The notes under the pieces: model-generated
The model's input: only the letters and a program-made list of their open reading frames with translations
The model's database searches: none
Told to the model about the DNA's origin: nothing
Assembly: GCF_055900595.2 (NCBI RefSeq)
Contig: NZ_CM148325.1
Reading direction: 5' to 3' (one strand)
Length of the DNA stretch: 64,000 nucleotides
Made by a program: the position numbers and the translations under genes
Shown: positions 1,187 through 31,858 of the stretch, one piece after another
How the letters are laid out: the number at the start of each line of letters is the position of its first letter
How positions within the stretch are numbered: position 1 is the first letter of the stretch

Positions 1187-2140
1187 ATGATCGAAGTAAA
1201 ACACCTGAAAACGCTACAAGCGTTGCGGAACTGCGGCTCACTCGCAGCCGCTGCGGCGACGTTGCATCAAACGCAATCCGCCCTGTCTCACCAGTTTAGC
1301 GATCTGGAACAACGCCTTGGCTTCCGGCTATTTGTGCGTAAAAGCCAGCCGCTTCGGTTTACACCGCAGGGAGAAATCCTGTTGCAACTGGCGAATCAGG
1401 TGCTGCCGCAAATCAGCCAGGCACTGCAAGCCTGCAATGAACCGCAGCAGACGCGCCTGCGCATTGCCATTGAGTGCCATAGCTGTATTCAGTGGCTGAC
1501 GCCCGCGTTAGAAAATTTCCATAAGAACTGGCCGCAGGTGGAGATGGATTTTAAATCGGGCGTGACGTTTGACCCGCAGCCCGCGTTGCAGCAGGGTGAG
1601 CTGGATCTGGTGATGACCTCCGATATTCTGCCGCGCAGTGGCCTGCATTATTCGCCGATGTTCGATTATGAAGTGCGTCTGGTGTTGGCACCTGACCATC
1701 CACTGGCGACAAAAACGCGAATCACGCCGGAAGATCTCGCCAGCGAGACGCTGTTAATTTATCCGGTGCAGCGTAGCCGACTGGATGTCTGGCGGCATTT
1801 TCTTCAGCCCGCAGGCGTTAGCCCGTCACTGAAAAGCGTCGATAACACCTTGTTGTTGATTCAGATGGTTGCCGCACGGATGGGCATCGCTGCTCTACCG
1901 CACTGGGTGGTGGAGAGTTTTGAACGCCAGGGTCTGGTGGTCACCAAAACCCTGGGCGAAGGCTTGTGGAGCCGACTGTACGCCGCCGTTCGCGATGGTG
2001 AGCAGCGTCAGCCGATTACGGAAGCGTTTATTCGTTCAGCGCGCAATCACGCCTGCGATCATCTGCCGTTTGTGAAGAGCGCGGAGCGACCCACTTACGA
2101 TGCACCCACAGTGAGGCCAGGATCACCAGCGCGCCTGTAA
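1187..2140 (+). CDS. metR: LysR-family transcriptional activator MetR
   Basis: 317-aa ORF beginning [45 protein letters not shown], an HTH LysR-type N-terminus matching MetR, divergent from metE. Confidence 0.95.
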
Positions 2141-19560: not shown

Positions 19561-19602
19561 TGAACCGCCCCGGGTTTCCTGGAGAGTGTTTTATCTGTGA
19601 AC

Positions 19603-20493
19603 TCAGGCTGCCAGATCATCGTTTCCGATGGAAGCATAATAAGCTTTTTCTGCTTCTGCCGGAGGAGTATGGCCCAGCCTTCCCAGCAATCGTCGATTGT
19701 TATACCAGTCCACCCACGTTAGTGTGGCCAGTTCCACTTCTGCACGGTTTTTCCAGCTCTTACGGTGTATTACCTCCGCTTTGTAAAGACCATTGATGCT
19801 CTCAGCCATCGCGTTGTCATACGAGTCGCCTGTACTCCCTGTTGATGCCAGTAATCCGGCTTCTTTTAGTCGCTCCGTATAGGCCAGTGACACATACTGA
19901 GAGCCTTTATCGCTGTGATGGATGGTGCCAGACGGACGACGGGCCCACAACGCCTGCTCCAGCGCATCCAGCACGAATGTCGTTTCCATAGACGATGAGA
20001 CCCGCCACCCCACGATGTATCCGGCAAACACATCAATGATAAACGCCACATAGACGAAGCCCTGCCATGTGCTGACGTAAGTAAAATCAGCCACCCACAG
20101 CTGGTCAGGTCGTTCTGCCACGAACTGACGGTTTACGCGGTCGCCTGCGGCAACGGCTTTCCGGCTGATGGTCGTACGGACCTTTTTACCCCGGAGAACA
20201 CCGGCAAGTCCCATAACCGCCATGAGACGTGCCACTGTACATCTGGCCACCCTGATTCCTTCCCGTAACAACTGACGCCAGACTTTACGCACACCGTACA
20301 CCTGATGATTTTCATCGTATACGCGCTGTATCTCTCTCTTCAGCCAGTCGTCGTGCTGCGCACGGGCACTGCGTTTATCCGGATGATGTCGCTGTTGCTG
20401 ACAATGGTAATACGTTGACGGGGCAATATGCAGTTCGCTGCATACCGGTCCGACCCCGTACTGCTCACGCAGCTTATCCAGCAGTGGCATCAT
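19603..20493 (-). CDS. IS629-like transposase OrfB (DDE integrase/catalytic domain)
   Basis: 296-aa ORF ([33 protein letters not shown]...) with an rve-type catalytic core (…[31 protein letters not shown]…[10 protein letters not shown]…[16 protein letters not shown]). In the -1 frame relative to orfA. Confidence 0.9.
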
Positions 20494-20816
20494 TTTTTCC
20501 AGAGGCGGTCGAACTCCGCCTTCGCAAAATAAGCGGAAGCCTGGCGAAGGATATCGTTACTGCGGCGCAGTTCACGATTTTCACGTTCCAGCTCTTTCAG
20601 ACGCTGACGTTCAGCGCTGGTGAGCCCACCATCACCGCCCCCGGTATCCCGCTCATGCTGGCGAACCCAGACACGCAGAGTCTCCGGCGTACAGCCAATC
20701 TTTGGAGCAATGGAACAAATTGCCGCCCACTGTGAGTCATATTCATCCTGACTTTCCAGAACCATACGAATCGCCCGCTGACGGACTTCGGGGGAAAAAC
20801 GAGTATTTTTAGTCAT
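20490..20816 (-). CDS. IS629-like transposase OrfA (HTH and leucine-zipper protein)
   Basis: 108-aa [67 protein letters not shown]...[28 protein letters not shown]. Ends in the A-run CTCTGGAAAAAATGA, where orfB begins in the -1 frame. Confidence 0.9.
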
Positions 20817-20870
20817 CCTGTTTACCTCTTTCTCAGGGAGTTTAGTCTCCAGGATTTCCGGGGCGGTTCA

Positions 20871-20970: not shown

Positions 20971-22449
20971 ATGCACTATCGCAATGTGGTTTGTTTGTTG
21001 TCTTGTTCGTTATTCTTATCCCCGGCATGGGGATGTCGGCTTTCCGCGCCTGAACATAATATTTACCAGAAACAGGGAAAAGGCGTGGTGTACCTGCGCC
21101 CTTATAAAGAAACAAATCTTTCTCTACCTGACGTGAATTACAAGAGTTTGCGTCGTTTACCTAATTTATTAATAGACGCAACAACACAAGATGAATGGAA
21201 TAAAGAACCACCTCTGACTGATCTAACAACTGACAACCTCTATGAGGGCGCACAAGCCTGGTATCCCCATTACTCCTGGCATAGCGATGGTCGCTATATC
21301 CTCTACGCGGGTGAAGTAGTGCAAAATCCTCACGACGCACCACCCGTCGATATCGCCTCATTCAAGGCATGGGGAGATTTTGCCGCGGATAAACACAGTC
21401 TCTATTTTGAAGGCAAGCGCACCGATAACAATGGCGGGGGAAATAGCTTAGATATCAAAACACTGCATCAGGTGGAATTCCGGCCTCCCTGGGATCCTGA
21501 CTTACTGGGGCTGATATTACGTGACGCTAATTTCTTGTATATCAATGGGCATCGCCTCGCAGATCCCGATAGTTTCCGTGTGCTGGCACAAAAGTCATGG
21601 GATCAGCGAGGAAAGTTTTCTACCGCGTTTAATCCCTGTGTGGCTATGCCATTTGGCCCCTGGGATACCCTGGCTCGTACACGGACCAAAATCCTGATCA
21701 ACGGCGAACAGCTTGATGCCGACCCGGACACCTTTTCCGTCGTGCGCTGGATGCCCGGCTCACTCTTGACCTGGCGTGATAAAAACGGGCTACAGCGTAA
21801 AGTCCTCGACAAGGAAAATCTGGCGTGGGATGAAGATTTAACAAAGCACTGTCTGGATTTTTCTCTGCTGGAAAAGAAAGTGTTCTGGCGTAAAGGGCCT
21901 GCTTGTAAACAGGAAGAATTACCGGGGCTCGATCCTGAACAGTTCCACCCCATCAGTGATGCTGTCGCCCAGTATCAGGATTCGCTTTATACCATCATCG
22001 AAACAGAGTCTGGTGACCGCAAGCTGGAGATCGTAAAACTTGATGATCCCAATCTTATTATCAACAAACGTTTCAACGCCGGGAAACGCCATGGCTATTT
22101 ACTTACGCGTGCCGAAGGGTGGCCAAACCATTCCGGTTTACACGTGTTTGAATCTGACGGACCGCTGATCTTACTGGATAACCACTCTCCGGATGAACGC
22201 GAAGCCCATCTTGATGACCATCCCTTTTTGCGCAGATGGTATGCCCGCGATAACCGCTACGTTTACAGCTTTGATGGCGCGCAGCTCTGGCGATACCGCA
22301 CTGCGGATCCGAAACAAGTTCGCTTAATCTGGAAGGAACAACATTCGGGATATGGCTACGGGGTAAATTACAAAACGGGATATCTGGACGGAAAAATTAC
22401 CGATGACGGCGAATTTATTCCTGCCCCGCGCAATGAGGCGACAAAATGA
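20971..22449 (+). CDS. Secreted protein with DKNYY-like repeats (paralogue 1); function unknown
   Basis: Track ORF 20941..22449 trimmed to the ATG at 20971, with AGGA 7 nt upstream. Hydrophobic signal-like N-terminus MHYRNVVCLLSCSLFLSPAWGC. Recurrent motifs DKHSLYFEGKR, DANFLYINGHRLADPDSF and DNRYVYSFDG. Family assignment is by motif recall, not a database search. The segment looks AT-richer than its flanks by eye. Confidence 0.75.
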   Translation: MHYRNVVCLLSCSLFLSPAWGCRLSAPEHNIYQKQGKGVVYLRPYKETNLSLPDVNYKSLRRLPNLLIDATTQDEWNKEPPLTDLTTDNLYEGAQAWYPHYSWHSDGRYILYAGEVVQNPHDAPPVDIASFKAWGDFAADKHSLYFEGKRTDNNGGGNSLDIKTLHQVEFRPPWDPDLLGLILRDANFLYINGHRLADPDSFRVLAQKSWDQRGKFSTAFNPCVAMPFGPWDTLARTRTKILINGEQLDADPDTFSVVRWMPGSLLTWRDKNGLQRKVLDKENLAWDEDLTKHCLDFSLLEKKVFWRKGPACKQEELPGLDPEQFHPISDAVAQYQDSLYTIIETESGDRKLEIVKLDDPNLIINKRFNAGKRHGYLLTRAEGWPNHSGLHVFESDGPLILLDNHSPDEREAHLDDHPFLRRWYARDNRYVYSFDGAQLWRYRTADPKQVRLIWKEQHSGYGYGVNYKTGYLDGKITDDGEFIPAPRNEATK

Positions 22450-23774
22450 AAGGTCAAATAATCACTGTTGCACTCATCCTGTTGGGGCACATATTTCTGA
22501 CGCCTGCTGTACAGGCCATAGGGTTCGACTATTACAATGATCACGGTGTTATGTCTTACGGTAAAGGTTATGGGGAGGATGAGAAAATCATTGCCCAATT
22601 TCCGAAGATGAACAGAGCCGATTTACGCCTTGTGACAAATATATCCAGGGAGCGGGAGTTGGTGGAAGGCTATATACCCACCGATGAAATAAGCATAAAA
22701 AATGAGGAATACCACTGGGTGACAGACGGCCGCGTTATTCTCTGGCGTGGCAAAATCGTTAGCAATCCACCGGGAACACCCACTGTCGATATTGCCAGCT
22801 TTCAGGCTATGGGCCGCTTCGCGGTCGATAAATATAGCCTCTATTTTGACGGACAGCGCACCGAAAGTAATAGCGGCGCGTCACGTGTTGATCTGGCGAC
22901 ACTAAAAGCTATCGAAGGTAACTCTACCACGCTGGTGGATAGTAAAAATCTCTATTTGTCCGGTCGACGTCAGGGGAGCAGCAGTAATGTTACTGTATTA
23001 GAAAAAAGATGGTGGGGTATTAATCCACGTCTTATGAGTGTAAACAGAAATTTGTATTCCAATGATCTGCTTATCCGCAGTGGGCAGAATATTTATTTAA
23101 ATGGCGTTCACCTTACGGCGAATGCAGACTCATTTGAGATAATTCGCTGGATACCTCATTCACTGCTGGTTTTTCGCGACAATAAGGGTATGCATCGTTA
23201 TCCCTTTGGGCAATTGTCTGGCAAAGCGATACCCGTAGATGATGACGTCTCTTTTGAAGTAGGGGAAAGTCGCGTTCGCTGGCGTAAACAGCTCACGTCC
23301 GACCGTCAGTGGAGCCAGTGGATAGACCTACCAGGTATTGAACCTGAACAATTTCATCTGATTACTGACAATATTGCGCAGTATAAAGATCGGCTGTATG
23401 TAACAAAATTATCGACTTTTGGTGAAGACCAGCTTGAAATAATCCCGCTGGATTTGCCAGACCTGGTCATTGATCACTCATTTAATCGCGGCAAACAGCA
23501 TGCTTACTTTATCCACCAATTACGGTCACGCAAGAGCGTGCAAATTATTCCAGTTAACGGCCCGCTAACTAAAAACGATCGCTTTGCTTATGACGATCGC
23601 AATGTTTATACATGGACCGATACAGAGGTAAGGATTACACCCTCCCCCTGCCCAGCGAAAACATACGTCAGAGAAAAGAATGTCCGTGAAATTCATAATA
23701 GCGACATTATTATTCCGGTGACGGAGGAATCGTGCCGGAACGCAGCAGCAGACGGGCAAACTTTGAAGCCCTGA
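22446..23774 (+). CDS. Secreted protein with DKNYY-like repeats (paralogue 2); function unknown
   Basis: 442-aa ORF whose ATG overlaps the stop of the upstream gene (ATGA at 22446-22449), with GAGG 8 nt upstream. Sec-type signal MKGQIITVALILLGHIFLTPAVQA. Alignable blocks shared with paralogue 1: W.SDGR.IL..G..V.NP...P.VDIASF.A.G.FA.DK.SLYF.G.RT and G..PEQFH.I.D..AQY.D.LY. Confidence 0.75.
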   Translation: MKGQIITVALILLGHIFLTPAVQAIGFDYYNDHGVMSYGKGYGEDEKIIAQFPKMNRADLRLVTNISRERELVEGYIPTDEISIKNEEYHWVTDGRVILWRGKIVSNPPGTPTVDIASFQAMGRFAVDKYSLYFDGQRTESNSGASRVDLATLKAIEGNSTTLVDSKNLYLSGRRQGSSSNVTVLEKRWWGINPRLMSVNRNLYSNDLLIRSGQNIYLNGVHLTANADSFEIIRWIPHSLLVFRDNKGMHRYPFGQLSGKAIPVDDDVSFEVGESRVRWRKQLTSDRQWSQWIDLPGIEPEQFHLITDNIAQYKDRLYVTKLSTFGEDQLEIIPLDLPDLVIDHSFNRGKQHAYFIHQLRSRKSVQIIPVNGPLTKNDRFAYDDRNVYTWTDTEVRITPSPCPAKTYVREKNVREIHNSDIIIPVTEESCRNAAADGQTLKP

Positions 23775-28814: not shown

Positions 28815-30020
28815 ATGACGGAACAAGAAAAAACCTCCGCCGTGGTTGAAGAGACCAGGGAGGCCGTGGACACCACGTCACAACCTGTCGCAACAGAAAA
28901 AAAGAGTAAGAACAATACCGCATTGATTCTCAGCGCGGTGGCTATCGCTATTGCTCTGGCGGCGGGCGTCGGTTTGTATGGCTGGGGTAAACAACAGGCC
29001 GTCAATCAGACTGCCACCAGCGATGCCCTGGCTAACCAACTTACGGCACTGCAAAAAGCCCAGGAGAGCCAAAAAGCCGAGCTGGAAGGCATTATCAAGC
29101 AACAAGCTGTACAGCTTGAGCAAGCGAATCGTCAGCAAGAAACGCTGGCAAAACAGCTGGATGAAGTCCAACAAAAGGTCGCGACTATTTCCGGCAGCGA
29201 TGCTAAAACCTGGCTGCTGGCTCAGGCTGATTTCCTGGTGAAACTCGCCGGAAGGAAGCTGTGGAGCGATCAGGACGTCACGACCGCTGCAGCGTTGCTG
29301 AAAAGTGCAGATGCCAGCCTGGCGGATATGAATGACCCGAGTCTGATTACCGTTCGTCGGGCAATTACCGATGATATCGCCAGCCTTTCTGCGGTATCGC
29401 AGGTGGATTATGACGGCATCATCCTTAAGCTGAACCAGCTTTCTAATCAGGTAGATAACCTGCGTCTGGCCGATAATGACAGCGATGGTTCACCAATGGA
29501 TTCCGACGGTGAAGAGCTTTCCAGTTCCCTCAGCGAATGGCGTATCAATCTACAAAAAAGCTGGCAGAACTTTATGGACAACTTCATTACGATTCGCCGT
29601 CGTGATGACACCGCCGTACCACTGTTAGCACCGAATCAGGATATCTATCTGCGCGAAAATATTCGCTCCCGCCTGCTGGTCGCGGCACAAGCCGTACCGC
29701 GTCATCAGGAAGAGACTTACCGCCAGGCGCTGGAGAATGTCTCCACCTGGGTACGTGCTTACTACGATACTGATGATGCCACCACCAAAGCGTTCCTCGA
29801 CGAGGTGGACCAGTTAAGTCAGCAAAATATCTCGATGGATCTCCCGGAAACCCTGCAAAGCCAGGCGATGCTGGAAAAACTGATGCAGACCCGCGTGCGT
29901 AACCTGCTGGCACAACCGGCAGCAGGGACAACGGAAGCTAAACCTGCACCTGCACCTGCACCTGCACCTGCACCTGCACCGCAAGCTGATACTCCGGCAG
30001 CCGCGCCGCAAGGAGAATAA
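28815..30020 (+). CDS. hemX: HemX (membrane-anchored, coiled-coil and PA-repeat protein; putative uroporphyrinogen-III C-methyltransferase)
   Basis: 401-aa [28 protein letters not shown]... with a transmembrane segment ([22 protein letters not shown]), a Q-rich coiled-coil and a C-terminal (PA)n tract. Confidence 0.9.
29942..29971 (+). repeat. Hexanucleotide tandem repeat (ACCTGC)x5 inside the hemX 3' end, encoding (Pro-Ala)n
   Basis: Five perfect tandem copies, ACCTGCACCTGCACCTGCACCTGCACCTGC, translating to [10 protein letters not shown]. Confidence 0.9.
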
Positions 30021-30022
30021 CC

Positions 30023-31219
30023 ATGCTAAAAGTGTTATTGCTCTTTGTGTTGCTGATTGCGGGGATCGTGGTCGGCCCGATGATTGCCGGTCATCAGGGG
30101 TACGTGCTGATCCAGACCGATACCTACAATATCGAAACCAGCGTCACGGGCCTGGCGATCATTTTGATTCTGGCGATGGTAGTGCTGTTTGCCATTGAGT
30201 GGCTACTGCGGCGGATCTTCCGCACAGGCGCACACACCCGTGGGTGGTTTGTCGGACGTAAGCGTCGCCGTGCCCGTAAGCAGACCGAACAGGCGCTGCT
30301 GAAACTAGCGGAAGGCGATTATCAGCAAGTTGAAAAGCTGATGGCGAAAAATGCCGATCACGCTGAACAACCGGTGGTGAACTATCTGCTGGCTGCCGAA
30401 GCCGCGCAACAACGCGGTGATGAAGCACGCGCCAACCAACATCTGGAACGCGCAGCGGAGCTGGCCGGCAACGACACAATTCCGGTAGAAATCACCCGTG
30501 TACGTCTGCAACTGGCCCGTAATGAAAACCATGCAGCACGTCACGGCGTTGATAAGCTGCTGGAAGTTACGCCACGCCATCCGGAAGTATTACGTCTGGC
30601 GGAACAGGCGTATATCCGCACCGGTGCATGGAGTTCGCTGCTGGATATCATCCCATCAATGGCAAAAGCCCACGTTGGCGATGAAGAGCATCGTGCAATG
30701 CTGGAACAACAGGCATGGATTGGCCTGATGGATCAGGCGCGTGCCGATAACGGTAGCGAAGGTTTGCGTAACTGGTGGAAAAACCAAAGCCGGAAAACGC
30801 GTCATCAGGTGGCGTTACAGGTGGCAATGGCGGAACATCTTATTGAATGTGACGATCATGATACTGCCCAGCAAATTATCATCGACGGCCTGAAACGCCA
30901 GTATGACGATCGCCTGCTGCTGCCGATCCCGCGTCTGAAAACCAATAACCCGGAACAGCTGGAAAAAGTGCTGCGCCAACAGATCAAAAACGTGGGCGAT
31001 CGCCCGTTGTTGTGGAGCACACTGGGTCAGTCGCTGATGAAGCACGGCGAATGGCAGGAAGCATCGCTCGCCTTCCGCGCGGCGCTGAAACAACGTCCGG
31101 ACGCCTACGATTACGCATGGCTTGCCGACGCGCTGGACAGACTGCACAAGCCGGAAGAAGCCGCAGCGATGCGTCGCGATGGCTTGATGCTAACCTTACA
31201 GAATAACCCGTCACAGTAA
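30023..31219 (+). CDS. hemY: HemY (TPR-containing inner-membrane protein of the hem operon)
   Basis: 398-aa ORF MLKVLLLFVLLIAGIVVGPMIAGHQGYVLIQTDTYNIETSVTGLAIILILAMVVLFAIEW..., the last gene of hemCDXY. Confidence 0.95.
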   Translation: MLKVLLLFVLLIAGIVVGPMIAGHQGYVLIQTDTYNIETSVTGLAIILILAMVVLFAIEWLLRRIFRTGAHTRGWFVGRKRRRARKQTEQALLKLAEGDYQQVEKLMAKNADHAEQPVVNYLLAAEAAQQRGDEARANQHLERAAELAGNDTIPVEITRVRLQLARNENHAARHGVDKLLEVTPRHPEVLRLAEQAYIRTGAWSSLLDIIPSMAKAHVGDEEHRAMLEQQAWIGLMDQARADNGSEGLRNWWKNQSRKTRHQVALQVAMAEHLIECDDHDTAQQIIIDGLKRQYDDRLLLPIPRLKTNNPEQLEKVLRQQIKNVGDRPLLWSTLGQSLMKHGEWQEASLAFRAALKQRPDAYDYAWLADALDRLHKPEEAAAMRRDGLMLTLQNNPSQ

Positions 31220-31258: not shown

Positions 31259-31858
31259 ATGTCAAAATTGCGCACGCCGTCCCGCTATCTTTTCCGCTTG
31301 CCATCGCATGAAATTACTCCTTTTCGGGCAACGCTCTTTTTAATCTTGTTGATATGTGCCGCTCTGGCTGGCGTAAGTTGGCTGATTATTTCCTTTGTGC
31401 GTACGGGCAATACATTCATCTTCTGGTTAACACTTTTTATTGGGTATCTGATAGCTGCGGCGAAGCAGGAAAAAATCAAGCTCCTCAAGAAGTACCGAAT
31501 CATGGCAGATAAACGTCGGGTACGCTCCATTTGCCAGTTCGCCCGCGAATTTGACACCTACACCGTAGATACATGGGTGATTCGTGCGGTGTGGGATACC
31601 TTGCAAGGAAACGGCTATATCGATTACCCACTGCCACTGAAAGCCGATGATATACTGGACGATGATCTGGATTTGGTGCGCGACGCAGTCGAGTTAGAAG
31701 AGCTGGTTGAAGATACCGCTGCTCGTTGCGGGCGCGATCTATGCGGAATAGAAGAGAATCCGTTTCTTCCCATCGTCACGGTAGGCTCTCTTGTAAGAGT
31801 TTTAAACGCGCAACCGATGACCCAGGAGCGACGTAACCAGTTCTTTATTCGGTCATAA
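31259..31858 (+). CDS. Hypothetical membrane-anchored protein (two predicted transmembrane helices and an acidic cytoplasmic domain); function unknown
   Basis: 199-codon ORF starting 7 nt after the hemY terminator T-tract, with its stop (TAA, 31856-31858) overlapping the 3' end of GlmZ on the opposite strand. N-terminus TLFLILLICAALAGVSWLIISFV / FIFWLTLFIGYLIAAA; C-terminal acidic stretch DDILDDDLDLVRDAVELEELVED. Ordinary codon usage by eye. No convincing Shine-Dalgarno (only AGG abutting the ATG). I do not recognise the protein. Confidence 0.5.
   Translation: MSKLRTPSRYLFRLPSHEITPFRATLFLILLICAALAGVSWLIISFVRTGNTFIFWLTLFIGYLIAAAKQEKIKLLKKYRIMADKRRVRSICQFAREFDTYTVDTWVIRAVWDTLQGNGYIDYPLPLKADDILDDDLDLVRDAVELEELVEDTAARCGRDLCGIEENPFLPIVTVGSLVRVLNAQPMTQERRNQFFIRS

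Follow-up and report, generated by a model that had tools for sequence, protein, structure and literature searches.

The perfect hexanucleotide array near the 3' end of hemX is CVN014, a well-known typing marker of Escherichia coli, and is not new. Its behaviour is very probably that of a hypermutable in-frame microsatellite that gains and loses units by slipped-strand mispairing and is probably near-neutral for the protein. All positions refer to the window, the whole stretch of 64,000 nucleotides (64 kb) that was analysed. The relevant features are the following.

28815..30020, plus strand: hemX coding sequence, 401 aa (ORF; Pfam PF04375; RefSeq annotation of the near-identical strain E200086)
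29919..29938, plus strand: site of the CVN014 'R' primer GCAGCRGGGACAACGGAAGC, exact match
29942..29980, plus strand: perfect hexanucleotide VNTR (TRF, sequence, codon layout and unit count)
29943..29978, plus strand: (CCT GCA)x6, then CCG, encoding (Pro-Ala)6-Pro as HemX residues 377-389
30010..30015, plus strand: hemY Shine-Dalgarno sequence AAGGAG, within the last hemX codons (Q-G-E) and 29 nt downstream of the array
30023..31219, plus strand: hemY coding sequence (ORF and annotation), starting 2 nt past the hemX stop codon
30042..30065, minus strand: site of the CVN014 'F' primer TCCCCGCAATCAGCAAMACAAAGA, exact match, within the hemY 5' end

The array is the strongest tandem repeat of the 64-kb window, with TRF reporting a period of 6 and 6.5 copies of ACCTGC at 29942..29980 (100% matches, score 78). 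Direct reading of 29940..29983 gives AAA, six successive CCT GCA pairs and then CCG CAA, and this codon layout, AAA-(CCT GCA)x6-CCG-CAA, translates into K-(Pro-Ala)6-Pro-Q at HemX residues 376-390. The initial annotation had recognised a perfect ACCTGC hexamer array beginning at 29942 and encoding Pro and Ala in frame, and the start, the perfection, the residues and the frame all stand. The extent does not: five hexamers ending at 29971 and a (Pro-Ala)5 tract had been given, which leaves off the last 1.5 units, whereas the array comprises six full units and a half unit, ends at 29980 and encodes (Pro-Ala)6-Pro. By calculation (64000 x 4^-33), chance would yield 33 successive lag-6 matches roughly 1e-15 times in a sequence of 64 kb, so that the array is not a product of chance. 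Furthermore, CCT-GCA is the codon pair in every unit, with no exceptions, which is the outcome that DNA-level duplication would give, and not selection on the amino acids.

The generic E. coli MLVA scheme GECM-7/GECM-10 reportedly goes back to Lindstedt et al. 2007 and Lobersli et al. 2012. CVN014 is a 6-bp locus in the generic scheme of Lindstedt et al. 2007, for which the allele number is calculated as (product - 111)/6 (PMC8143711), and its published primers are F TCCCCGCAATCAGCAAMACAAAGA and R GCAGCRGGGACAACGGAAGC (PMC8143711 Table 1). In the window, the two primer sites are convergent and each is unique, with a chance expectation of 0. The resulting amplicon (29919..30065) measures 147 bp, and (147-111)/6 yields allele 6.0. 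The same calculation gives integer alleles for eight loci of other strains (2, 3, 4, 6, 11, 13, 15), in each case equal to the counted units. Given the exact matches of both primers and the fitting 111-bp offset, the array is the already known VNTR CVN014; primers, 6-bp unit and offset are the same, and there is no difference at the DNA level. The literature ranks CVN014 first in variability among the loci of the assay (PMC3877011; PMC5217547), with alleles 2-11 in ST131 alone (PMC3407997). The hemX array is likewise polymorphic, spanning 1-25 units in E. coli, 4-17 in O157:H7 and 6/3/5/3 among the clone-mates discussed below. Neither hemX nor a Pro-Ala tract is named in the open-access MLVA literature that was searched, in which no link from gene name to VNTR was found, and a full-text literature search for all six rotations of the reverse-complemented motif gave unrelated E-box and primer matches only. 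The gene-to-locus link, hemX = CVN014, is made explicit here.

The hemX gene of K-12 MG1655 is 1182 bp long and encodes 393 aa, which is the length that the initial annotation had given. Compared with K-12, the 24-bp difference of the window lies wholly within the array (6 vs 2 units) and the flanks are otherwise collinear. The proposal that the 8-residue difference corresponds to four repeat units is therefore correct, as the gap maps to the array and nowhere else in the protein. The region between the conserved flanks was also extracted from the window and eight other genomes. In this flank-to-flank comparison, K-12 has 2 units, E272 has 3, O157:H7 6535NalR has 4, the window and E200086 have 6, O157:H7 Z852 has 11, E47 has 13 and FREC5 has 15. 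None of the arrays in these nine genomes is interrupted, and the number of units is the sole length difference between the conserved flanks.

At the species level, the locus was found in 5,425 of 5,426 complete E. coli genomes. Among the matches listed, the match lengths deviate from the query solely by multiples of 6 bp, and the alleles range from 1 to 25 units. Alleles were sampled and ranked with synthetic queries composed of the K-12 flanks and 0, 30 or 60 units. The allele frequencies are approximate, being derived from two rank-spread systematic samples (118 genomes in total) of a database biased to lab strains and outbreak clones. In these 118 genomes, 1 unit was seen once, 2 units 19 times, 3 units 3 times, 4 units 9 times, 5 units 18 times, 6 units 19 times, 7 units 13 times, 8 units 8 times, 9 units 9 times, 10 units 5 times, 11 units 4 times, 12, 13 and 15 units 3 times each and 16 units once. 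The window's allele of 6 is the median of the sample and is tied for commonest. The longest alleles among the matches listed have 25, 23 and 22 units, followed by 21 (n=5), 20 (n=4) and 19 (n=7), and ranking by the long synthetic query places only 46 genomes at or above about 17-18 units.

The two extremes, read directly, are those of BKQ37E, with a single unit, and SD134209, with 25 units, all perfect. Eleven cleanly assembled arrays were read base by base (1, 2, 3, 3, 3, 4, 5, 6, 11, 13, 15 and 25 units, with the 6 of E200086 counted once), and all of these are uninterrupted, their immediate flanks showing occasional SNPs only. HemX accordingly varies in length from 391 to 439 aa, and the gene is intact in all alleles examined. 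The prediction of slippage in 6-bp steps without frameshift is thus met by alleles of 1 to 25 units in which hemX is always in frame, and the copy number is far from uniformly five. It also follows that annotated hemX and HemX lengths (391-439 aa) differ for a trivial reason, by which 393 vs 401 aa is fully explained. One HemX of 485 aa (P0001), known from a single ENA contig, was considered as a giant allele and rejected, because 84 residues of its C-terminal region are duplicated internally. The duplicated segment is HQEETYRQ...TEAKPA, and the protein also has the variant tract APAPAPTPAPAPAP. The duplication may be genuine, as a tandem duplication of 252 bp, or an artefact of assembly.

The initial annotation had raised a correlation of copy number with lineage, and a tie is indeed seen, albeit a loose one. 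Every sampled K-12 derivative carries 2 units, while genomes labelled O157:H7 carry 4, 7, 11, 13, 15, 16 or 17 units. Within the window's own clone, E200086 (Mali) has 6 units, E400634 (Kenya) 3, 100117 (Gambia) 5 and AST85 (Japan) 3. Apart from the array, these four strains are mutually identical across 10.8 kb around hemX, and all four are set apart from the window in these flanks by 2 shared SNPs, without indels. As the array is the sole difference among the four clone-mates, it mutates much faster than point substitution accumulates. The flank haplotypes QAD and QGD beside the array each span a wide range of alleles, which indicates homoplasy. From the distribution of alleles, short arrays look stable and longer ones very unstable. 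The site is best masked in SNP and indel comparisons of close genomes, or else handled as a marker that changes fast and stepwise.

In the proposed mechanism, nascent and template strands would misalign by whole units at replication, such that 6 bp would be gained or lost per event and the HemX C-terminal tail would grow or shrink by two residues. Since the unit equals two codons (Pro-Ala), the frame is never shifted and the gene is never switched off. Each unit holds the palindrome TGCA, and folding of either strand with DNA energy parameters gives 4-bp TGCA stems parted by 2x2 mismatches, the hairpin energy of the array being -5.9 kcal/mol at 6 units and -17.6 kcal/mol at 15 units (z = -6). 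Such TGCA-stem hairpins could stabilise slipped intermediates. Perfect arrays that change by whole units, together with homoplasy and an instability that depends on length, are the signature of slipped-strand mispairing, which is inferred from the established behaviour of microsatellites.

Comparable arrays are known from other genes. The 6-bp O157 loci O157-3, -9, -17, -19 and -25 resemble the hemX array in being coding, in gaining and losing units stepwise and in serving as fast clocks in outbreak typing, and Salmonella STTR5 is an in-frame hexanucleotide VNTR in yohM that is used for typing. STTR5 and, presumably, these O157 loci differ from the hemX array in the genes concerned. Simple-sequence contingency loci of Haemophilus, Neisseria and Campylobacter share the mechanism, slipped-strand mispairing in a perfect short repeat. 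However, their units are not multiples of 3, or lie in promoter spacers, and they act as on/off switches, whereas the hemX array alters tail length only. With a 6-bp unit and an intact gene in all alleles examined, there is no shift of frame or promoter spacing of the kind that characterises phase-variable contingency loci.

The 401-codon ORF matches the Pfam HemX family PF04375 with E = 3.5e-108 and 361 bits against a cut-off of 25.9 over aa 130-363, and hemX is the annotation of this ORF in RefSeq genomes. HemX has an N-terminal transmembrane helix (approximately aa 36-57), the HemX domain (aa 130-363) and a Pro/Ala-rich variable tail (aa 366-401) that starts after an invariant RVRNLLAQP motif. 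The Pfam domain ends before the repeat (aa 377-389). In Citrobacter and Salmonella homologues, the tail is variable in sequence and length, with abundant Pro, Ala and Thr. Judged by the basic KKSK patch in front of the single transmembrane helix, the topology would be N-in, C-out, with the tail in the periplasm. In an AlphaFold2 model, secondary structure ends at aa 365 and is followed by coil; the model was built from a 23-sequence alignment whose members are all at least 88% identical and has low confidence (mean pLDDT 41, pTM 0.29), the mean pLDDT making it too poor to establish disorder of the tail.

Pro-Ala-like alternation occurs in the OmpA hinge APAPAPAP, the Glu-Pro/Lys-Pro spacer of TonB and the lipoyl-domain linkers of E2p, where it is expected to be extended and unstructured. 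These segments join two folded domains, whereas the HemX tract is located at the very C-terminus. Only 12 residues follow it, so that it is a C-terminal tail and not an inter-domain linker joining two independently folded domains; the term 'C-terminal linker' used in the initial annotation does not apply, as no second domain is joined. HemX itself is a poorly characterised inner-membrane protein, described as a distant homologue of Mic60 without the mitofilin domain (bioRxiv 10.1101/2022.06.14.496148; PMC2704936). The Keio hemX deletion strain is viable and shows reduced gentamicin sensitivity (PMC12282077). As the conserved HemX domain does not include the tract, which is part of a low-complexity tail, changes in tract length are probably tolerated, the array would drift freely, and near-neutrality of HemX tail length is plausible.

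Repeats at the same place in other genera bear on this point. Citrobacter gillenii carries (GCA CCT)x5, the same hexamer, at the homologous site, and related Citrobacter protein clusters have 3-5 Ala-Pro pairs. In C. sedlakii (approximately 1400..1470 of the extracted locus), a 9-bp in-frame unit (GCACCTGCC)n is found at the same position of the HemX tail as (GCA CCT GCC)x3, encoding (Ala-Pro-Ala)n, and among the Citrobacter protein clusters P0006/P0007/P0016/P0020 this unit is present in 1, 2 or 3 copies. The 9-bp repeat may be an undescribed VNTR in that genus. The HemX tail of Salmonella enterica has no repeat at the homologous site. On these comparisons, in-frame repeat polymorphism seems to recur at the HemX tail within Enterobacteriaceae, which is a minor addition. 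The cross-genus repeats are compatible with a shared proto-repeat that expands repeatedly; weak selection favouring a Pro/Ala tail is the less probable alternative.

In an adaptive reading, the length of the Pro-Ala tail would be functional, for example as a rigid periplasm-spanning spacer, and rapid change would itself be selected as a means by which lineages adjust HemX activity. The CCTGCA array at the homologous site in C. gillenii and the 9-bp Pro-Ala-Ala array with 1-3 copies in C. sedlakii imply that a Pro/Ala-rich tail is kept across genera, and the retention of the very same hexamer in C. gillenii could hint at a constraint favouring a Pro-Ala tail, which would count against neutrality. 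Arrays are also perfect up to 25 units, but high turnover predicts perfect arrays equally well. The tract links nothing, as 12 residues follow it, and Salmonella manages without any repeat. The end of HemX, APQGE, is conserved across genera with P-Q-G-E invariant, but this is accounted for by the overlap of these codons with the hemY Shine-Dalgarno sequence. Moreover, clone-mates differ with no shared optimum apparent, alleles are spread broadly, from 1 to 25 units, and hemX deletion mutants such as the Keio strain are viable (PMC12282077). Adaptive tuning of tail length is thus unlikely. The wider proposal, in which the HemX tail is a recurrent in-frame repeat hotspot in Enterobacteriaceae because its length modulates a Mic60-like protein, with CVN014 as a selected tuning knob, is decidedly improbable. 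If tail length did affect HemX, the array would offer a handle on HemX function; nothing here points in that direction. The array has little importance beyond bookkeeping, the locus having been in use for E. coli strain typing since 2007.

A second possibility concerns the downstream gene. The array lies near the start of hemY, which is 2 nt beyond the hemX stop, and a change in its copy number might act on HemY synthesis through the structure of the mRNA or through translational coupling. Self-pairing is predicted for the repeat RNA, with the minimum free energy dropping by approximately 2.6 kcal/mol for each added unit. However, this predicted pairing is internal to the repeat and does not involve the hemY initiation region. 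The predicted unpaired probability from the Shine-Dalgarno sequence to the AUG is 0.154-0.155 at all copy numbers from 0 to 30, and the region would anyway be unwound by ribosomes terminating hemX translation. With the accessibility of the start region unchanged across 0-30 units in RNA folding, tuning of hemY translation by copy number was rejected as very unlikely, and no effect of the array on the hemY ribosome-binding site is predicted.

That the copy-number differences are assembly or sequencing errors in a low-complexity region is scarcely credible: the P276M record, with an interrupted array beside a garbled hemY, suggests that such errors occur, but the differences are exact multiples of 6 bp throughout thousands of finished genomes, the array (6-150 bp) fits easily inside single reads, and the same polymorphism is obtained by PCR fragment sizing in independent MLVA studies. 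In E. coli P276M (NZ_CP044293.1, 1660..1900 of the extracted locus), the array consists of 7 units, then CCTGCT GCACCTGCACCA, then 4 units. The adjacent 5' end of hemY is garbled and annotated as frameshifted, and the record probably reflects uncorrected long-read sequencing error and not a real allele.

Several further features were observed elsewhere in the window. An IS3-family insertion sequence of approximately 1.3 kb occupies approximately 19561..20870 on the minus strand, with orfA (108 aa, 20490..20816), orfB (296 aa, 19603..20493) and terminal inverted repeats that begin TGAACCGCCCCGGG and look IS629/IS1203-like. This element is the sole large difference between the window and E200086, which are otherwise 99.97% identical over 40 kb. 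It is located directly upstream of the first of two DKNYY-like genes, a paralogous pair on the plus strand (20971..22449 and 22446..23774, encoding 492 and 442 aa) between lptM and cyaY. Both proteins have signal-peptide-like N-termini and are annotated as 'hypothetical' or 'DKNYY family', with Pfam DKNYY matches below threshold only. Of 5,426 E. coli genomes, 1,394 have at least 80% of the 2.8-kb segment containing the paralogues, and matches that are diverged or partial are found in 4,475.

Downstream of hemY, a hypothetical ORF of 199 aa (31259..31858, plus strand) is located between hemY and aslA. The encoded protein has two predicted membrane helices, an acidic C-terminal half and no credible Pfam match. 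K-12 and six other compared strains lack the ORF, whereas 689 of the 5,426 complete E. coli genomes have it, mostly at only 80-90% identity.
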